DNA of 64,000 nucleotides from Eubacteriales bacterium (lineage in GTDB: Bacteria > Bacillota > Clostridia > Oscillospirales > CAG-272), in the NCBI GenBank assembly GCA_051867875.1, contig JBJDZG010000004.1, positions 12,832 to 76,831 on the forward strand, in the 5' to 3' direction. Under the pieces are notes generated by a model that worked only from the letters and a program-made list of their open reading frames with translations, was not told where the DNA came from and ran no database searches. Below are positions 55,051 to 62,900 of the stretch, piece by piece (the stretch's first letter is position 1; the number at the start of each line of letters is the position of its first letter). Position numbers and translations under genes: made by a program.

Positions 55051-55080
55051 AATCTTATCTTCTATAACAAAATTTTTGCA

Positions 55081-55110
55081 AGCAGGCGGCAGAGCAAACT
55101 GCCGCCTGCT
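55081..55110 (-). terminator. 12-bp GC-rich hairpin downstream of the metallophosphoesterase-fusion gene
   Basis: agcaggcggcag-agcaaa-ctgccgcctgct, 12 nt after the stop. The U-run on the minus transcript is weak (ugcaaaaauuuu). Confidence 0.5.
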
Positions 55111-55121
55111 TTATTATTGTA

Positions 55122-57446
55122 TTAACCGCCGAAAAGTTCCGAAAAGAATTTTCCGATAGAATTGAAAATCGCTTTGAAGAATTCTCCGATAAGCTCCCAA
55201 AGACTCATTTCCTCAAGGGGCTTTTCAGGAGCAGGCTCATCGGGATTTTCCGGATTATCGGGATTTGAAGGCACATCGGGCTCGGTTGTCTTTTCTGTAT
55301 GAACTGCCGTTATTTCAACGCTCATCGTCGATTTCGTAGCCCACGGAGAGAAAGAAACGTAGCAAGCGGAAGAATCCGTAAAATGACTCATTCCTTCAAG
55401 TGCGCTCGCGGGTATTGTAAGTACGTCAGTTCCGAGAGGAGATATAACGCTCATATTAATACCGCCGTTTTCAGCCGACTCGAATTTAATATCGAACGGA
55501 ATAGACCCCGTATTGCCGTACACGAGATAATCGCTTCTGCCGATAGAAATTCCCGAACCTGTGCTTACACTTCCGCTGGCGAAATCGATATTGATAAGCA
55601 ATCCCTCGTTTGAAAGCCACTTATCTTTATACGTGTTGGAAAGCAAAATTCCGAGCACCTTGTTTTCGGACTGTATATTGAGATTCGTAAATCCGAGATG
55701 CAAGCCGTCAAGGTCAAACGTGGAATTGAAACCGAGGAAGTAGTTTTTCGTAGCCTCGTTCCAGTTCAGTTTGACGCCGATATTCGTGCTGTCCTCTATC
55801 CAGCCTTTTGAGGTCATGGGAGAGATACTGAACGTATCGCTCTTTGAGGGAGCAAATTCGTCCGAGCACTTTGTAATGAAATATTTGTTGTAATATTCCC
55901 TTTCGAGATTTTCAAATTCGTCGAGCTTATCCATAAGATTCTTAATCTTATAGTTGAGCTTGTTAATCTCTTTACGCATCGTCGTAATCAGCTCAAGGTC
56001 GGACTCCGTAAGCTCTTTTTCCATAAGCTCGTCTATTCTTGCGTCAAATCTCGTTGCGATGATTGCGTTTTCCTCTGTCATATCAACAAACTTCTGCGAA
56101 AGCTCGGTGCATACGTAGAAGCAGTCATACGCCCTTACCTTGACCGTATAAGGATACTTAAAATCGCCCGTAAACGTCGTTGAGTAGCTCTTCGGCATAT
56201 TCGTAAGCCCCGGGTCGTTGTAGAAAGGCGTTACTATGGTCTTTGATGCAATTACCGTACCGTTCTCATTCTCTACCAAAACCTCATAGTAAAAGACCAT
56301 ATCGTCGTCCACAGCGGACTTGAAGTCGATTCTGAGCTCAGTGCTTGAAACTTCGATTACCTCTATTCCCGCGGGGAATTGAGGAGCACGGTTGTTTGCA
56401 AGTCTTGTTTCCTTTGAGTAGCGTGTAAGAGATGAACCGTCGGACTTGTATGCGTCGATATACCAAGGGTCCTTTATAACCGTATCTTTTGCAATATCTA
56501 TTCTGGTGATGCGGATATTGTTTTCCTTATCCACCTCAACTATCATTCCCTGCGAGAAAGAACGGCGGTTTTCGGGCTTAATAACGTCAAATTCAATGTC
56601 GGAAGCACTGCCCGAATTAATCTGCGTATACGTGCTCTGATTGATATTCGTTTCAAGATTAAGACCGTAATGGGTGTGTCCGCTGAAAAGAATTACCTGC
56701 GGATATTCTTTGAGCACGCTGTCAAGCTGAACCGATGCTCCCCAATCTCCCGTTCCGCTGATATCGTTGGACATACTGCCGTATACGGTGTCCTTTGCGG
56801 GACTGTGGCTGGATACGAATACGTAAGCGTTGGGATTTTCGCCTACTATTCTGTCGAGCGTATTTCTGAGCCACGTCTCAGTCTCTGCGGAAAGAGTGTT
56901 GTAGTTGGGCATATACGTTTCGATATCAACGCTTATAAAGTGATAGCCGTTTATCTCAACGTGGCGGTTGCCCTTGTAGATGCTCTTCATATCCTTATCG
57001 AAAAGATACATATCGGAGCCGTAAGCGTCAACGAATTCCGCTCTCGTCATACAACCAGACCAGTATACGTCGTGGTTGCCGTTTGTAATAATTACGGGTA
57101 CTTTCGTTACGTCGAAAGCCTCTTTCACTATCGAAGCAAACAACTCTGCCTGCTCCTTTTTACCGTCCTGAGTCTGGTCGCCGCAAAAAAGCACTGCGTC
57201 AATGCCGTTCTTGGCATACTTTTTGATAGTTGCAAGAGTATTTCGGAGAATATTTGCATTGTCGCCAAATCCTACGTGCGTATCGGAAAGGTTGGCAAAC
57301 GTAAATACTATCTCGTTTTCGTTAAATGCGTAATCGGGAGTTGACACGGCAGCCACCTCACTCTCTGCACCTGCAAACATGGGAATAACTCCGAAGCACA
57401 TAACAACAGCCAAAGTCAAACTGAGTATTTTGTTAAATTTAGTCAT
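55122..57446 (-). CDS. Secreted multidomain protein with five parts: metallophosphoesterase, Fn3-like domain, helical segment, uncharacterised beta-rich domain, and acidic/Pro linker with C-terminal amphipathic FF tail
   Basis: Sec signal (ILSLTLAVVMCFGVIPMFAGA|ES). Calcineurin-like motifs are DTHVG, GDQTQDG, GNHD, SSHSP and SGHTH (aa ~46-262). The C-terminus is PDVPSNPDNPENPDEPAPEKPLEE followed by MSLWELIGEFFKAIFNSIGKFFSELFGG. Confidence 0.8.
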   Translation of the reverse strand: MTKFNKILSLTLAVVMCFGVIPMFAGAESEVAAVSTPDYAFNENEIVFTFANLSDTHVGFGDNANILRNTLATIKKYAKNGIDAVLFCGDQTQDGKKEQAELFASIVKEAFDVTKVPVIITNGNHDVYWSGCMTRAEFVDAYGSDMYLFDKDMKSIYKGNRHVEINGYHFISVDIETYMPNYNTLSAETETWLRNTLDRIVGENPNAYVFVSSHSPAKDTVYGSMSNDISGTGDWGASVQLDSVLKEYPQVILFSGHTHYGLNLETNINQSTYTQINSGSASDIEFDVIKPENRRSFSQGMIVEVDKENNIRITRIDIAKDTVIKDPWYIDAYKSDGSSLTRYSKETRLANNRAPQFPAGIEVIEVSSTELRIDFKSAVDDDMVFYYEVLVENENGTVIASKTIVTPFYNDPGLTNMPKSYSTTFTGDFKYPYTVKVRAYDCFYVCTELSQKFVDMTEENAIIATRFDARIDELMEKELTESDLELITTMRKEINKLNYKIKNLMDKLDEFENLEREYYNKYFITKCSDEFAPSKSDTFSISPMTSKGWIEDSTNIGVKLNWNEATKNYFLGFNSTFDLDGLHLGFTNLNIQSENKVLGILLSNTYKDKWLSNEGLLINIDFASGSVSTGSGISIGRSDYLVYGNTGSIPFDIKFESAENGGINMSVISPLGTDVLTIPASALEGMSHFTDSSACYVSFSPWATKSTMSVEITAVHTEKTTEPDVPSNPDNPENPDEPAPEKPLEEMSLWELIGEFFKAIFNSIGKFFSELFGG

Positions 57447-57457
57447 AGGGACCTCCT

Positions 57458-59809
57458 TTAATTATATTTATAGTATACTCCCGCAGAGTCTATCTGAGCG
57501 GCAACGTTATACGTTCCCGTAACCTCAAATCCGAAATTCATTCCTCCGATGTAGATATCTTCCCATGAGGTGTCGCCGAGATAGCCTCTTTCCTTTGCGG
57601 TATTGAAGGCGGCCTTAGCGGCATCGAGAAGGTGGAAATCCACCGTTCTGTATTCGTTTACTACGGGACATTTGCCATTCGGATGAACGAGGGCGGAAGA
57701 GGGCTGATATATAAATGCGTGAGTGGCATCTTCCTTTCCTGCATCCTCTGCGGCATATCCGCCGAAAGGAGCACCGGAAATGCGGTTGTCCCAGAGAGTA
57801 ATTCCAAACCAGACGTAGCTTCCGTAATCCTTGTGTCCTACCGTTCTGTTTTGAAGTGTGATATACCAAACGAGCTGTGCACAGTGCTTATTGGAATCCG
57901 CCGAGCTGCCCATACAGTCCTCAAATTTGGTTATCTCATAGCTCATATTCATTACGAGGTCTTGGAGCTCACTTACGTGAACGAGATTCCCGCCGAAATC
58001 CTGCGATATAAGAGTATGAGGCCAGCTCTCGCCGTCCAGGCGGGGATGGTCGTATTCCACCTGTGCATTAAGCTCCATGTATATAGAGCCCTTCGTGCTG
58101 TCAATGGTCAGAATTTTGCCGGGCACATCGACTCCGTTTATCTTCTGACCTGCGGATACATAAGTATAAGCATTTCCGCCGTTGAAATAAGTTCTTTCAG
58201 CATAATCGTAAATGTCATATTTTGAACCCCACTGAGGGAATACCCAAGATGGCTCATCGGTGGCGTTGACTCCCGCTATGTTGCCGGCAACGCTGCCGTC
58301 GGGCTTCAAAACGGTAAATCCATTTTTGAAAAATGGGTCATTAAAAAGCGCCGTATAGCCGTTTTCGGTGTATTTCTCGTATGCGGTTTCAGAGTCTGTC
58401 ACGGGTGTATCCGGCACGGAAGACTCGCAGTTAAAATTTATGAGAGTTGCAAGAAGATTCATAGCGTAAACACGCGCAAAGAAATCGTTGGGGTGGTTTA
58501 CGTTATTGCTCGACATTTCGGTAAAGTATTTGCCCGAATCAAGAAGATCCTGATGTATAGCACCGATATCGACGACGGACACGTTCTCATAATTCTTTGA
58601 TATCTTTTTGAGATATTCTGTATATTCCGTCTGATTTTTGGACTGATTCTTTGCCATCGGGTTTGCAAGCATTGTTCCGAGAAGAATAATCTCGCAGTCC
58701 GGATTCTGCTTGCGAACGGTACTTATCATACTCATAATATTATTGCAGAAAGTATCTATGGAAAGACCGAGTGTAGCGTCGTTCATACCGAATCCGATAA
58801 TGGCAACATCGGGAACGTATCCCTTGAGCTCGCCCGAAACGAACTGCGTTGCAAGACCGGGCTTCTGTACCTGCTGTCCTGCTATCCAGCCCGTACCGCC
58901 GCCGACTCCGTTGGCAGAAGTCCAACCGCCGACACTGGTATTTTTGAGATTAACCGTTGTACCGTAGTAGGAAGAAAGGCTCTGGGCGAACATCTGGGGC
59001 CACGTGGGAAGTCCCGGATTTATACCGAGCACGGAAGATGAGTTCGCGCCCGTGGATATACTGTCTCCGAATACGAGCACGTTTACTTCTTCTTTATTCT
59101 GCAACTTTGTCAAAGTATTTTTAAGCGTCGTATCGCCGAGATACTCGGGCACCGTTCCCGCCCATACGTTCTCAGCGTGAGTATACGTAACGCAGAGCTG
59201 CATCTGTACTATCTGGTAGCCCTCTGTAAAAGGCAGGCAAAGACCGTCGGTCTTCGAGGGAATATCGGACTGCAAAGTAAGTCCGGGAAATTTCTGCTCG
59301 CCTGTAAGCATCTTATCGGTAACATAGGGCATATTCGTCATAAATTCGTCCATCTCAAGTATGTCGTTATGAACGATACTTCCCTTCGCTACGATATATC
59401 CGTTTTCATAAATGAAGTCCACGCCTTCAGTAAAGGTTTTTATTTCAGAGCCGTTATTTTCGTGGAAATACCAAGTAACAGACTCGATTTTTTCTGCTTC
59501 AAAAAGGAGTTTGGCACGGGGTGCCTCAATAATATTGCCTTCGTCGTCGGTCTTGGCGACGAGCATTACGCTCTCGTCGTACATTTTGTCGCCAACCCAG
59601 AAGGGCTTCGCATATTCTTTAACTTTCATATCGTCTTCCGGAGGATTTTCATTACCGCCGGGATTTGTAGTAGTTGTTGTGGTTGATGTGGTTTTATCTG
59701 TGCCGCCGTTAAACTCTTCCCAAAACTCGTCCCAGGCTGTGCAGGAAACAAGTGGGAGCATAACGGCAAATGTAAGCAACAATGCGAGAATTTTTTTGAT
59801 ATTTTTCAA
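57458..59809 (-). CDS. Lipoprotein: beta-rich N-domain, SGNH/GDSL hydrolase domain and ~300-aa uncharacterised C-terminal domain
   Basis: Lipobox LPLVSC|T, then a Thr-rich linker. SGNH blocks are VLVFGDSIST (block I), GFGMNDA (block III) and NHPND (block V-like). The C-terminal domain (aa ~478-783) is paralogous to the ORF at 63401..64000. Confidence 0.8.
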   Translation of the reverse strand: MKNIKKILALLLTFAVMLPLVSCTAWDEFWEEFNGGTDKTTSTTTTTTNPGGNENPPEDDMKVKEYAKPFWVGDKMYDESVMLVAKTDDEGNIIEAPRAKLLFEAEKIESVTWYFHENNGSEIKTFTEGVDFIYENGYIVAKGSIVHNDILEMDEFMTNMPYVTDKMLTGEQKFPGLTLQSDIPSKTDGLCLPFTEGYQIVQMQLCVTYTHAENVWAGTVPEYLGDTTLKNTLTKLQNKEEVNVLVFGDSISTGANSSSVLGINPGLPTWPQMFAQSLSSYYGTTVNLKNTSVGGWTSANGVGGGTGWIAGQQVQKPGLATQFVSGELKGYVPDVAIIGFGMNDATLGLSIDTFCNNIMSMISTVRKQNPDCEIILLGTMLANPMAKNQSKNQTEYTEYLKKISKNYENVSVVDIGAIHQDLLDSGKYFTEMSSNNVNHPNDFFARVYAMNLLATLINFNCESSVPDTPVTDSETAYEKYTENGYTALFNDPFFKNGFTVLKPDGSVAGNIAGVNATDEPSWVFPQWGSKYDIYDYAERTYFNGGNAYTYVSAGQKINGVDVPGKILTIDSTKGSIYMELNAQVEYDHPRLDGESWPHTLISQDFGGNLVHVSELQDLVMNMSYEITKFEDCMGSSADSNKHCAQLVWYITLQNRTVGHKDYGSYVWFGITLWDNRISGAPFGGYAAEDAGKEDATHAFIYQPSSALVHPNGKCPVVNEYRTVDFHLLDAAKAAFNTAKERGYLGDTSWEDIYIGGMNFGFEVTGTYNVAAQIDSAGVYYKYN

Positions 59810-59992: not shown

Positions 59993-62900
59993 TCAGCCGG
60001 AAATTTTACCGATAAGACCTACGAAGAAGTTTCTGATAGCGTCAACGATGTTTCTGAAGAAACGAGCCAACTGCTGAATGAAAGTAAGCTCTTCTTCACC
60101 GGGCTCGTCACCGGGCTCGTCGCCGGGTTCGTCGCCGGGTTCGTCGCCGGGCTGGTCAGGGTCATCTACCTTAACGTCTTCACCGCATACGTCGCACTTG
60201 CCGTCTTTATCTGCGTCAACGTGCTCGGTGCACTCAGGTTTGTCTTCGGGCATACCGAATTCAACACCGTTAGCACTTACGAGTGTAAGAATGTTGGGAT
60301 ATGACTTGTCGTCTGCAAATGAACCCATTGAGAAGTATACTTCATCGGGAACTGCATGACCGTTATTAGTAAGAGCCTCAGTCGTGAGCACTATCTCAGC
60401 CTCGTTTACTCTGATAACGTAAGCCCAGTATGTAGCGTCCTCTACGAAGCTGTAATACTCTTCGTACTTAACGGAAATAGTAATTGTACCGCCGTCAAGA
60501 GGTGTAGCGATAGCGCTGTTGGCAAGAGGTACGTCCGTGTAGTTCATAATCTGAACGTTGGATTCTGTGGGATAGAGCCAGATTATGATGGAAATACCGT
60601 CGCTCATCGACTTATAGGAGTCGGGAGATGCCAAGAAGTTGAAGCAAAGGTTATTTGCGCTGGAGCCGTTATTGTAGTATGCTGCGCTCGTAAGCTCGAT
60701 AACTATCTCTGCTCCGGATTTAAGGTTAAGAGGCTTGTTATAGTTGAGACGTGCGGGGAATTCAACCTTGGACTCAACTGCAAGACCTCTGTTGTTCCAT
60801 TCAACAAGCGGAATGTTCGTTGAATTCATGTAGTAGAATACATTTGCGGAAATGTCAAGTTCAAGGTCGGCAAGCTCTGCAGCTATCTCTGCATTCTCTT
60901 CCATGAGGTAATCAAGCTTAATGCCCTTGAACTTATTGCGTACTGTCTTGAACTCGTCAAGAACTGTGTACTGCTTTGTAAGGAGGTCGGAAACCTCTTT
61001 AATCTGTGCGCGAACGTATGCCTCGCAAGCGTCTTTAAGTGTATTGTAACCTGCTACGTAACGGCTGTAAAGCTCGCCGTCTTCCTCTGTAATTGTAACG
61101 TAAGTTGCGATTTCTGCATAAGCTGCCTTAGCGTCGTCAAGATTGGGCTTGATTGTAAGGTCAGCTTTAAGCTTTTCTTCCATAGCCGCGATATAGCTTT
61201 CTTTAAGCTGAGGAAGAACTACTGTTTCGATATTTACTACTGCTTCATCACATACTGCGATAGCGCTTTCAAGAGCTGCTTTGTCTTCTTCATTGAGAAC
61301 GGTTGTAATCTTTACATAAGCCGTTGTTGATGTGTATGCTTCTCTGTAAGCCTTAACCTCAACAAGACCGTCAACGATAGAGGGGTCATTCGCATCGAGA
61401 GCCGCAATCTTTGATTCGTATGTTGTTACCCAGAGAAGAGCGATGCAGTAATCGTGTGCATAATCAAGACCTGCAATAGCTGTGTCAATCTCTGCCTTAG
61501 CGTCGTCGCTGAGCATGGAAGCTCTGCTTGCATACTCTGCCTTTGCATCATTTGTAAGAGCAAGAGCAGCTGCAAGGGATTCATTATTAAGCGTTGTTGC
61601 GTCTGCAACAAGTGCATCGTAAGCAGCCTTAGCTGCATCAAGTTTGTCTGTTACTGCCTTCTTAACGATGAGAACGATATCTTCGTTAGCTGCAAGTTCA
61701 GCGTCAACTGCTGCCATTAAAAGATTAAGTTCAGCAAGCTCTCTTGAACGAAGTCCGTTAAGAGAAGCAAGTGCTTCGGATTTAGCTGCCATAGCTGCAT
61801 CGTAGGAAGCTGCGTCCGTAATGGAATCTGCTGCTGTTTTATAAGCCTCAACCTTAGCCTGCGCGCCTGTTACGGCATCGCTTGCAAGGTAAGCTCTGTA
61901 ATTATCGTCAACGATTTTGTACTCTGCTACGCAAGCGGGGTTTGCTCCGGAGGGGAAACCTGCTGCGATAACGTAGCACTCACCGTTTTCGTTGAGCATA
62001 TCTGCTACCGTTGCTTTGGGAAGATATACCGTGCAGCTCTTTTCATCTGCATTGTAGTTGGCGTTGTTGCCCCACATTGAGCTATCCGTCATCGTAATCT
62101 TTACAGAGTAGAAATCATCATTGTAGGACTCAAACTTAATAGTCCAACCCATTGTTGCGGCCTGACTGCAAACCATGGAGCCTGCTACGCCGAAGCCGTT
62201 ATTCGCAGAAGAAACTTCGGGAGCTGTGTAAACAACGGATGAGGAATTGTAATTGTGATTTGTACCGAAGTGAAGTCTTGCCTGTCCGGAATAGAGTTCA
62301 TTCCAATATGTGATGGAGAAAGGAGAATCGTCTCCAAAATATGCGCCGTTTATACCTGAGAAAATAATGCCGGCGCAGTCGCCTTTGTTGGAAGTCGAGC
62401 GGAAGCTGATTTCCAGTCCGTCGAATTTTACGAGATGCTTATAGTAAGAACGAACGCCCCAACCGGAAAGATTGGAAACTTCTGTGTATCCGTTCTCTGC
62501 AAAATTCATCACGGGAGAACCTGCATAAGCTGCCCAGTCACTGTCTGATGCGCCTACGATACCGGGAACTTCGGGAGTCTCGGGCTCGGGGTCAACGGGA
62601 GTTTCGGGCTCTTCAGCACCTGCAGCTTCTGTAACTCTGATGCTGTAATTGGGGCTCGTGAGACCCGAAGCGGAAACATAGAGCTTGCCCTCAGAGTCAA
62701 GAGCACTTGCAAATGTGGATTTAAGCATATAAACGGTGCAGGAGTGTCCGCCGCCCTCTTCGTCAGCGTAGTTTGCGTTGTTGCCCCAAAGGAGATTATC
62801 CTGTGCTACCGTAAATTTAACTGCGTATGTGTTTTCGTCATAAGAATTTATCTCAATCTTGATGTCGGCATCTGTTACGGTATTAAGTACCATAGAGCCT

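Follow-up and report, generated by a model that had tools for sequence, protein, structure and literature searches.

Two genes of one operon, situated in a 64,000-nucleotide stretch of a Eubacteriales genome (contig JBJDZG010000004.1; the whole stretch is referred to as the window), encode exported proteins with different main parts and closely similar C-terminal ends. What could such a shared end be for? The first protein, a calcineurin-like metallophosphoesterase of 774 residues, terminates in EKTTEPDVPSNPDNPENPDEPAPEKPLEEMSLWELIGEFFKAIFNSIGKFFSELFGG (positions 55125-55295 on the minus strand, followed by the stop codon at 55122-55124). The second, a lectin-like protein of 1118 residues, terminates in DDPDQPGDEPGDEPGDEPGDEPGEEELTFIQQLARFFRNIVDAIRNFFVGLIGKISG (stop codon at 59993-59995). 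Both ends consist of an acidic, proline-rich linker and a tail, in the order EPDVPSNPDNPENPDEPAPEKPLEE-MSLWELIGEFFKAIFNSIGKFFSELFGG-stop in the 774-aa protein and CTEHVDADKDGKCDVCG-EDVKV-DDPDQPGDEPGDEPGDEPGDEPGEEE-LTFIQQLARFFRNIVDAIRNFFVGLIGKISG-stop in the 1118-aa protein; the motif common to both tails stops one and four residues, respectively, before the stop codon. A previous, sequence-only reading of the window had located and described these two ends, and translation of both genes confirms its coordinates and its description. It had suggested a dedicated tag for surface retention, sorting or docking that could not be matched to a described one. We propose a more familiar function: linker and tail probably constitute a portable, C-terminal amphipathic membrane anchor of the kind found in the penicillin-binding proteins PBP5 and PBP6 of E. 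coli.

Compared directly, the two tails give a BLASTP alignment that is not significant on its own (E = 0.64, single comparison), which would fit a chance or compositional likeness of two hydrophobic C-termini without a common function. A degenerate DNA pattern written solely from the two window tails, FF-x2-ΦΦ-x2-I-x2-FF-x2-ΦΦ-G, is expected 0 times in the window. It matches exactly twice, at the two tails, and not once in 100 shuffles. A hidden Markov model (HMM) of the tail, run over the 520 six-frame open reading frames (ORFs) of the window, gave 59 bits for the 1118-aa and 41 bits for the 774-aa protein. Both tails were part of the seed alignment, and the informative part of this result is the score of the next best ORF, which amounts to 8 bits.

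The tail is retained in orthologues of both proteins. For the 1118-aa protein we obtained 35 orthologues with 56-94% identity, and all 33 with a complete C-terminus keep it. Across 33 aligned sequences of this family the tail has a mean pairwise identity of 60% and a length fixed at 32-34 residues, while the adjoining linker drifts (25% mean pairwise identity, 13-33 residues). Orthologues of the 774-aa protein likewise conserve neither length nor sequence of the linker, and their tails are kept in all four examined (MNFFERIADFFNRLFASIENFFLNLFKF in locus L124, MGFFESIAAFFRGIFEAIGRFFTELFGG in L126, identical to the window in L001, and also present in protein P0071). One orthologue in the 1118-aa family, P0004, bears a tail of the 774-aa type, and therefore the two tail types interchange. 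These alignments indicate selection for the tail, but none for the linker. The conserved linker-tail cassette on unrelated passengers postulated earlier is borne out (BLASTP detects no significant similarity between the two proteins outside the tail), with the conservation residing in the tail. The motif is not confined to these two genes or lost in their orthologues, an outcome considered by the sequence-only reading: 33 and four orthologues keep the tail, and the motif is found widely. Given this conservation and the very large C-terminal enrichment across genomes described below, a chance likeness is already refuted, and its probability is negligible.

The physical properties of the tails are those of amphipathic helices. 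In the best 18-residue segment, the hydrophobic moment amounts to 0.61 for the 774-aa tail and 0.85 for the 1118-aa tail, values of which neither was reached by any of 2000 shuffles; the PBP5 anchor, calculated in the same way, has 0.50. Over 19 residues, the Kyte-Doolittle mean reaches at best 0.82 and 0.88, without a contiguous hydrophobic stretch. Neither tail is therefore a transmembrane segment, in agreement with the earlier description of an amphipathic helix too polar for that purpose. An AlphaFold2 model of the 1118-aa protein, a check that had also been suggested, shows a helix at residues 1090-1117; the linker before it (residues 1062-1089) is modeled with a predicted local distance difference test (pLDDT) value below 50. 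From the pattern count, the gap in HMM scores, the conservation in orthologues, the fixed length and the hydrophobic moment we conclude that the likeness of the two tails goes beyond chance.

A stop-transfer anchor would make the two gene products type I membrane proteins, with the tail spanning the bilayer, maybe as an oligomer that buries the polar face, and with its basic end (GKISG, GKK) in the cytoplasm. Most tails of the 1118-aa family indeed end in lysine-rich sequences (GKK, GKRS, GKITGK), consistent with the positive-inside rule. The 774-aa tail, however, ends in ELFGG and has no basic residue there. Three to five charged residues and several Asn are found within the 18-residue motif (six charged residues in the whole tail of the 1118-aa protein), and the Kyte-Doolittle means of the window tails are far below the usual transmembrane range. 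In PBP5, the same motif is a peripheral or oblique anchor (PMC2909392). A membrane-spanning arrangement of the window tails is thus unlikely, although some of their relatives may be true transmembrane anchors: in L002, the most divergent of the orthologous operons, both tails are swapped for the more hydrophobic EAVSIFGLLLELFVLIFSAIAEIFGSLFG (Kyte-Doolittle 2.49) and LTTLQKLWKVIIKIWNWIVAFVAALFKKG (1.71), which are hydrophobic enough. That orthologues exchange amphipathic for transmembrane-like tails speaks for membrane attachment as the property under selection.

C-terminal amphipathic anchors on exported proteins have been known since the 1980s for PBP5/6. We compared the window tails with the C-termini of E. 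coli DacA (PBP5), DacC (PBP6) and DacD as encoded in the MG1655 genome. In an ungapped comparison, FFKAIFNSIGKFFSELFG-G of the 774-aa and FFRNIVDAIRNFFVGLIG-KISG of the 1118-aa protein have a register identical to that of DacA and DacC: FF, any two residues, two hydrophobic residues, D/N, any residue, one hydrophobic residue, any two to three residues, (F)F, any two residues, two hydrophobic residues and G. Like the PBP5/PBP6 anchors, the window tails are situated at the extreme C-terminus of Sec-exported proteins (signal peptides assigned by inspection), have a high hydrophobic moment and are too polar for a transmembrane helix. The analogy to PBP5/6 drawn in the sequence-only reading was thus well chosen, the more so as the pattern retrieves proteins with Peptidase_S11 and PBP5_C domains. 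Its statement that the tail had no described counterpart does not hold, since the tail follows the register of the experimentally defined PBP5 and PBP6 anchors (PMC2909392). The last 18 residues of PBP5 form a membrane-binding amphipathic helix that lies peripherally or obliquely and does not span the membrane; their deletion delocalises the enzyme and abolishes its function (PMC2909392). In a shape-complementation assay with E. coli strain CS703-1, PBP5 function is reported to be restored by the C-terminus of PBP6 or DacD and not by the PBP4 anchor or an unrelated transmembrane helix (Nelson 2002, as cited in PMC2909392).

The resemblance concerns the anchor module and not membership in the DD-carboxypeptidase family, as both Peptidase_S11 and PBP5_C domains are absent from the two window proteins in a Pfam search. 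Unlike in PBP5 and PBP6, the helices follow a long acidic/Pro-rich spacer and are carried by a metallophosphoesterase and a lectin-like protein, and the host is monoderm; the helix would occupy the cell-surface face of its only membrane. What is new here are two copies of the anchor on new passengers; the kind of anchor is known, and the mechanism is not new.

Several points weigh against this assignment. Binding of the tails to a membrane is something that we infer. E. coli DacA scores only 4.3 bits with the tail HMM, albeit at the correct position, which amounts to a likeness of pattern and not to a statistically demonstrable homology. PBP5-type tails of other Proteobacteria reach 12-23 bits, but they were pre-selected by the pattern. 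The PBP5-type matches of the genome scan described below were likewise chosen by the pattern itself, which does not establish that the motif is general in that family, and E. coli DacD departs from it. Because the sequences are so short, homology and convergence are not separable for the tails. The tail helix of the 1118-aa protein is modeled with a pLDDT of just ~56-60. The FF pairs and the terminal LFG are conserved across unrelated proteins beyond the needs of amphipathicity, and an extra constraint, e.g. a partner or a particular insertion geometry, may therefore act on them. Finally, a linker of 25 residues is short compared with the thick Gram-positive wall and would place the passenger within or under the wall and not beyond it.

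Based on the sequence comparison and the model, the anchor could work in the following way. The proteins would be exported by the Sec pathway via their N-terminal signal peptides, which would then be cleaved off. Their last ~20-30 residues would form an amphipathic α-helix whose aromatic/aliphatic face (FF, I[FV], I, FF, L[FI]) enters the outer leaflet of the cytoplasmic membrane, in an in-plane or oblique orientation that leaves the K/R/N/D/E face in water. This insertion is suggested by the hydrophobic moment, by the predicted helix and by a register identical to that of the PBP5 anchor. The disordered acidic/Pro-rich linker would serve as a spacer that connects the catalytic or carbohydrate-binding part flexibly to the membrane, and neither a processing enzyme nor a receptor would be needed. 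In this manner the tail may retain the phosphoesterase and the lectin-like protein on the cell, close to the ABC importer that would take up their products.

The operon to which both genes belong is conserved in five loci. It starts with a GntR/periplasmic-binding-type regulator, followed by an SBP_bac_1 lipoprotein with two ABC permeases, two small lipoproteins, the 1118-aa protein, a GDSL lipoprotein, the metallophosphoesterase (orthologues at the same position in L001, L002, L124 and L126), a GH65 phosphorylase and a HAD-family hydrolase (Pfam HAD_2), which is possibly a beta-phosphoglucomutase. Four of these products carry a lipobox, namely the substrate-binding protein, both small proteins and the GDSL hydrolase. 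Genes for a Gram-positive-type PolC and for an Rnf complex, also found in the window, together with the lipoprotein nature of the substrate-binding protein identify the host as an anaerobic, monoderm member of the Bacillota. Being monoderm, the host lacks an outer membrane that could hold back exported proteins. Apart from the two tail-bearing proteins, the extracytoplasmic products of this operon are lipoproteins, and the tail would therefore give its two non-lipoprotein members the same surface retention. Every extracytoplasmic product thus appears to have a retention device, either an N-terminal lipid or, for the two with ordinary signal peptides, the C-terminal tail.

In the 774-aa protein, Metallophos is the sole Pfam match (residues 49-260, E = 6.7e-17). 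A possible lipobox (VVMC) in its signal peptide was dismissed, as Met is atypical at position -1 and an AxA cleavage site lies downstream. The mechanically called ORF of the second protein starts at a TTG and comprises 1122 residues; the ATG at 63349, used by the orthologues, yields 1118 residues. This protein has no Pfam domain. Its AlphaFold2 model, calculated with the orthologue alignment as input, has a mean pLDDT of 81.9 and comprises two tandem concanavalin/galectin-like β-sandwiches (residues 35-240 and 270-480), a helical part of ~350 residues (482-834) and a third β-sandwich (849-1026). Foldseek matched it to galectins, legume lectins and GH16/PL7-like folds. We refer to the protein as lectin-like because of these concanavalin/galectin-like β-sandwiches; judged by the model, it is probably a carbohydrate-binding surface protein without family assignment. 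For the coordinates of all features see Table 1.

Table 1. Features of the window and of related loci. Window positions count from the first nucleotide of the window; family assignments of genome-scan matches were made with Pfam among the matches listed, unless stated otherwise. MAG, metagenome-assembled genome.
Feature	Location	Strand	Basis or remark	Host
Gene of 774-aa secreted calcineurin-like metallophosphoesterase, bearer of tail copy 1	55122..57446	-	ORF list	window
Sec signal peptide, 774-aa protein, MTKFNKILSLTLAVVMCFGVIPMFAGA, AxA cleavage motif	57366..57446	-	n-, h- and c-regions by inspection	window
Acidic/Pro-rich linker, 774-aa protein, EPDVPSNPDNPENPDEPAPEKPLEE	55209..55283	-	translation	window
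Tail copy 1, 774-aa protein, MSLWELIGEFFKAIFNSIGKFFSELFGG, predicted amphipathic helix, PBP5-type register	55125..55208	-	translation	window
Gene of 1118-aa secreted protein, bearer of tail copy 2	59993..63349	-	ORF and 35 orthologues	window
Sec signal peptide, 1118-aa protein, MKRRILALLLLIPMMFSVFGQALVFA	63272..63349	-	translation; orthologues begin at same Met	window
Cys/Asp motif CTEHVDADKDGKCDVCG, just upstream of linker, 1118-aa protein	60182..60232	-	translation	window
Acidic/Pro-rich linker, 1118-aa protein, DDPDQPGDEPGDEPGDEPGDEPGEEE	60089..60166	-	translation	window
Tail copy 2, 1118-aa protein, LTFIQQLARFFRNIVDAIRNFFVGLIGKISG, predicted amphipathic helix	59996..60088	-	translation	window
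783-aa GDSL/SGNH hydrolase lipoprotein, lipobox LVSC, between the two tail genes, no tail	57458..59809	-	ORF and Pfam	window
Recurring C-terminal segment, three copies in operon, unannotated domain	window 63401-63919 and 57458-57640; L001:7786-9949	- (window)	sequence	
Extra 170-aa secreted protein with own tail DRGFFGMLLAFFEWLFKMIEAYFTIRLM	L002:18327-18839	+	between metallophosphoesterase and GH65 genes; absent from window	
Peptidase_S11+PBP5_C	L005, L063, L072, L088, L108; L004, L014, L089		Pfam; last three alike by sequence	Proteobacteria; L108 = Holzapfeliella, lactobacillus relative
DUF1002	L007, L028, L046, L049, L115, L091, L032, L076, L084, L038; L100, L101		Pfam; last two by sequence	Lachnospiraceae, Streptococcus, Heyndrickxia, Proteiniclasticum
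Pectate_lyase_4+CBM77	L039, L109		Pfam	Clostridia / Eubacteriales MAGs
GHL10	L092		Pfam	Eubacteriales MAG
Pullulanase X25 domain	L019		Pfam	Clostridia MAG
BspA-type leucine-rich repeat (LRR)	L043		Pfam	Candidatus Fimenecus MAG
PQQ propeller	L012		Pfam	Acutalibacteraceae MAG
CoxG (CoxG/SRPBCC), no signal peptide	L026:1215-1790; L075:2292-2861	-; +	Pfam	Actinomycetota
Small ParB_N proteins, no signal peptide	L040:2754-3146; L105:87-497	+; -	Pfam	Spirochaetes
Tail-only peptide	L077:3370-3486	-		Hydrogenedentota MAG

The spread of the motif was examined by two approaches. A scan of 185,579 species genomes with the DNA pattern returned at least 120 loci, which represent a sample and not a census; ~70% of the loci listed are chance matches in AT-rich DNA, located out of frame or in short ORFs. 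Among the matches listed, 38 lie in long ORFs, 33 of these 38 end at most 12 residues from the stop codon, and a signal-peptide-like N-terminus was recognized by our own heuristic in ~25 of 29 complete ORFs. The motif spans Proteobacteria, Bacillota and Actinomycetota, together with one match in a MAG labelled Nanoarchaeota. Its passengers are unrelated and mostly exported (Table 1). One MAG, RGIG9912, yields two matches (L019 and L039), and at L012 a second, adjoining ORF has a Pro/Glu linker and a tail-like end. In the second approach, an exhaustive HMMER search with a profile of 22 tails against 1.84 billion representative proteins (E ≤ 1e-3) gave 78 matches. Of the 45 with a single copy, 37 carry it within 10 residues of the C-terminus and eight at N-terminal or internal positions. 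The small lipoproteins P0043 and P0047 belong to the C-terminal group, as do free peptides of 32-38 residues (8/37).

All fourteen DUF1002 (PF06207) proteins of Bacillota recovered among the matches listed end in the motif (e.g. FFANIFNAIKDFFSGLFG), outside the Pfam domain. They resemble the window proteins in their signal-peptide-like N-termini and differ from them in the passenger domain and in a short connector that takes the place of the long acidic linker. Among the titles and abstracts retrieved on DUF1002, none deals with this tail. A search for amphipathic C-terminal anchors on Firmicutes surface enzymes or DUF1002 proteins likewise found none described; it returned only the work on PBP5 and on tape-measure repeats. 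Searches of Pfam and NCBIfam with the full proteins and the isolated tails (E ≤ 10) found no model of the tail and gave only noise far below the cut-offs (SelK_SelG, PT repeat, phiKZ_IP). A PDB sequence search with the tail gave no match. A word-indexed protein search with a 45-aa alignment of the two tails returned four candidates and no matches; with an alignment of 23 tails it returned six short proteins, four of them with C-terminal tails and none of them orthologues. The wide, module-like spread of one 18-residue signature is thus without a Pfam or NCBIfam model and was not found described in the literature searched.

The motif also stands at the C-terminus of CoxG and ParB_N proteins, which are cytoplasmic. 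The helix should therefore be able to bind membranes from either side, independently of any export-linked machinery, and in these proteins the tail suggests a tethering from the inner face. Short terminal amphipathic helices of the MinD and FtsA type, with ends such as FLKRLFGG, bind the membrane surface as well. With about 8-12 residues they are shorter than the tail, they work at the cytoplasmic face, and they have no double FF pair 11 residues apart; judged by its CoxG and ParB_N carriers, the motif would share their cytoplasmic topology in part of its occurrences. The idea of a dedicated, export-linked tag could not be upheld: presence of the motif on cytoplasmic proteins and at internal sites had both been named beforehand as evidence against it, and the motif was observed on cytoplasmic proteins as well as at N-terminal or internal sites. 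These occurrences fit a generic lipid-binding helix.

A dedicated sorting signal, processed by a specific enzyme as in the pairs LPXTG/sortase, PEP-CTERM/exosortase and GlyGly-CTERM/rhombosortase, would account for the extreme C-terminal position of the tail, the conserved Gly near its end (LFG) and its occurrence on several surface enzymes per genome. LPXTG, PEP-CTERM, GlyGly-CTERM and Firmicu-CTERM signals share with the tail the C-terminal position on several exported proteins per genome. Unlike these signals, the tail does not have the tripartite architecture of signature, transmembrane segment and basic cluster (the latter is missing from the 774-aa tail), and no sorting-signal model of NCBIfam or Pfam matches it even at E ≤ 10, in agreement with the earlier remark that signatures of the LPXTG, PEP-CTERM or GlyGly-CTERM type are lacking. 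No sortase-, exosortase-, rhombosortase- or protease-like gene was found in the five orthologous operon neighbourhoods (~20 kb each), in other words no candidate for a cognate processing enzyme. The distribution over Proteobacteria, Bacillota, Actinomycetota and a Nanoarchaeota-labelled MAG, as well as the occurrence on proteins without signal peptide and at N-terminal or internal sites, also argues against such a signal. For PBP5, the tail is reported simply to anchor the protein in the membrane, and that paper describes no processing step (PMC2909392). We consider processing by a specific enzyme very improbable. Of the functions envisaged earlier, membrane or surface retention is the best reading, and a dedicated sorting or docking system is unsupported.

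A further alternative is a docking or oligomerisation helix, by which the tails of one operon, or a tail and a free peptide, would pack together by their aromatic faces and build up a multi-enzyme complex at the surface. Tail-bearing proteins do occur side by side (two in the window, three in L002 and two adjoining ORFs in L012), peptides that consist of the motif only exist, and the conservation of FF and LFG is stronger than required for amphipathicity alone. In addition, the aromatic period of 11 in the tail is known from the W/F repeats of phage tape-measure proteins; the conserved aromatic residues of these repeats reportedly anchor auxiliary proteins (PMC3271669). On the other hand, no partner gene is conserved in the operons examined, and the motif is found in very different lineages on PBP5-type enzymes, DUF1002, CoxG and ParB_N proteins; in PBP5 it is a lipid anchor (PMC2909392). 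Docking as the function of the tail is thus quite unlikely.

The 11-residue repeats of tape-measure proteins have been described before (PMC3271669) and contain words such as FFxxIWxxIxxFF. They form long, internal tandem arrays, while the window tail is a single terminal unit of ~1.5 periods, and the window tail genes are flanked by sugar-utilisation genes and not by phage genes. The common period has probably arisen by convergence, as a physicochemical feature of long amphipathic helices. Long proteins with multiple matches to the tail profile were considered as a related surface family and rejected, as the sampled ones are tape-measure proteins: of four sampled, P0044, P0050 and P0074 have TMP_3 or PhageMin_Tail domains, and P0081, which has no Pfam match, was counted with them by analogy. 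By the same analogy P0053, P0057, P0064, P0070, P0075, P0092, P0093, P0105, P0108, P0111, P0115 and P0116 are assumed to be tape-measure proteins, too.

Stand-alone predicted peptides of 32-38 residues that comprise only a tail, e.g. MEALWEQIVAFFESIWASIVGFFGGLFGGNDEE, were observed in P0054, P0059, P0069, P0079, P0083, P0089 and P0106. In a more ambitious interpretation, FF-x9-FF-x2-LFG would represent a single, ancient and portable module that inserts in a defined geometry or binds a specific partner, distributed over PBP5-type enzymes, DUF1002 proteins, carbohydrate-active enzymes and lectins of Clostridia, CoxG, ParB_N and free peptides; in gut Clostridia, the tails of one operon, possibly with free peptides, would co-assemble membrane-tethered, multi-enzyme complexes for glycan degradation. 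If true, this would be an organisation of surface enzymes independent of cohesin and dockerin. We regard it as improbable.

The membrane-anchor interpretation has consequences of its own. Known means of retention in monoderm gut Clostridia are lipoprotein anchors, sortase/LPXTG, S-layer homology (SLH) or cell-wall-binding modules and cohesin-dockerin scaffolds. The tail suggests a further, simple route for pectate lyases, GHL10, X25, LRR adhesin-like and lectin-like proteins and a metallophosphoesterase. Proteins with the tail should then be annotated as membrane-tethered and not as freely secreted, a distinction that matters for models of selfish versus shared glycan degradation. A family model could be built from the 18-residue signature, and linker and tail could serve as a minimal surface-display tag in anaerobic Firmicutes. 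A modest question raised by these data is why one particular sequence, and not any amphipathic helix, is used so repeatedly.

Just upstream of the linker, the 1118-aa protein contains a Cys/Asp motif of the form C-x2-H-x-D-x-[DN]-x-[DN]-G-x-C-D-x-C-G, which is also found in P0030, P0043, P0047 and L043:256-3150. Its mean pairwise identity is 70% in 33 orthologues of the 1118-aa protein, and it is duplicated in P0030. The lipoproteins P0043 (97 residues, one copy) and P0047 (141 residues, several tandem copies) consist only of signal peptide, Cys/Asp motif(s), linker and tail. The motif has no Pfam or NCBIfam match and is modeled with low confidence by AlphaFold2. From its residues it looks like a small metal- or Ca-binding site or a disulfide knot that travels with the linker and tail.

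Some tail-bearing sequences from metagenomes have an unusual composition. In P0067 a triosephosphate-isomerase-like N-terminal part is joined to linker and tail, and P0090 and P0095 have the tail-bearing C-terminal half in common and different N-termini. These proteins look like chimeras of assembly or gene calling, and metagenome counts of tail-bearing families need care.

Two further elements were observed in the operon. A perfect 13-bp, GC-rich hairpin (window 55080-55111; 9 G-C pairs, 6-nt loop) is situated in the 71-bp gap that separates the stop codon of the 774-aa gene from the GH65 start. It scores as terminator-like on the plus strand and may serve as an attenuator within the operon or influence RNA stability. 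The GDSL lipoprotein and the two small lipoproteins encoded upstream of the 1118-aa gene have a conserved C-terminal segment in common (NGFNIGWE, STNIGWELPGNYD, GGMNFGFEVTGTYN).

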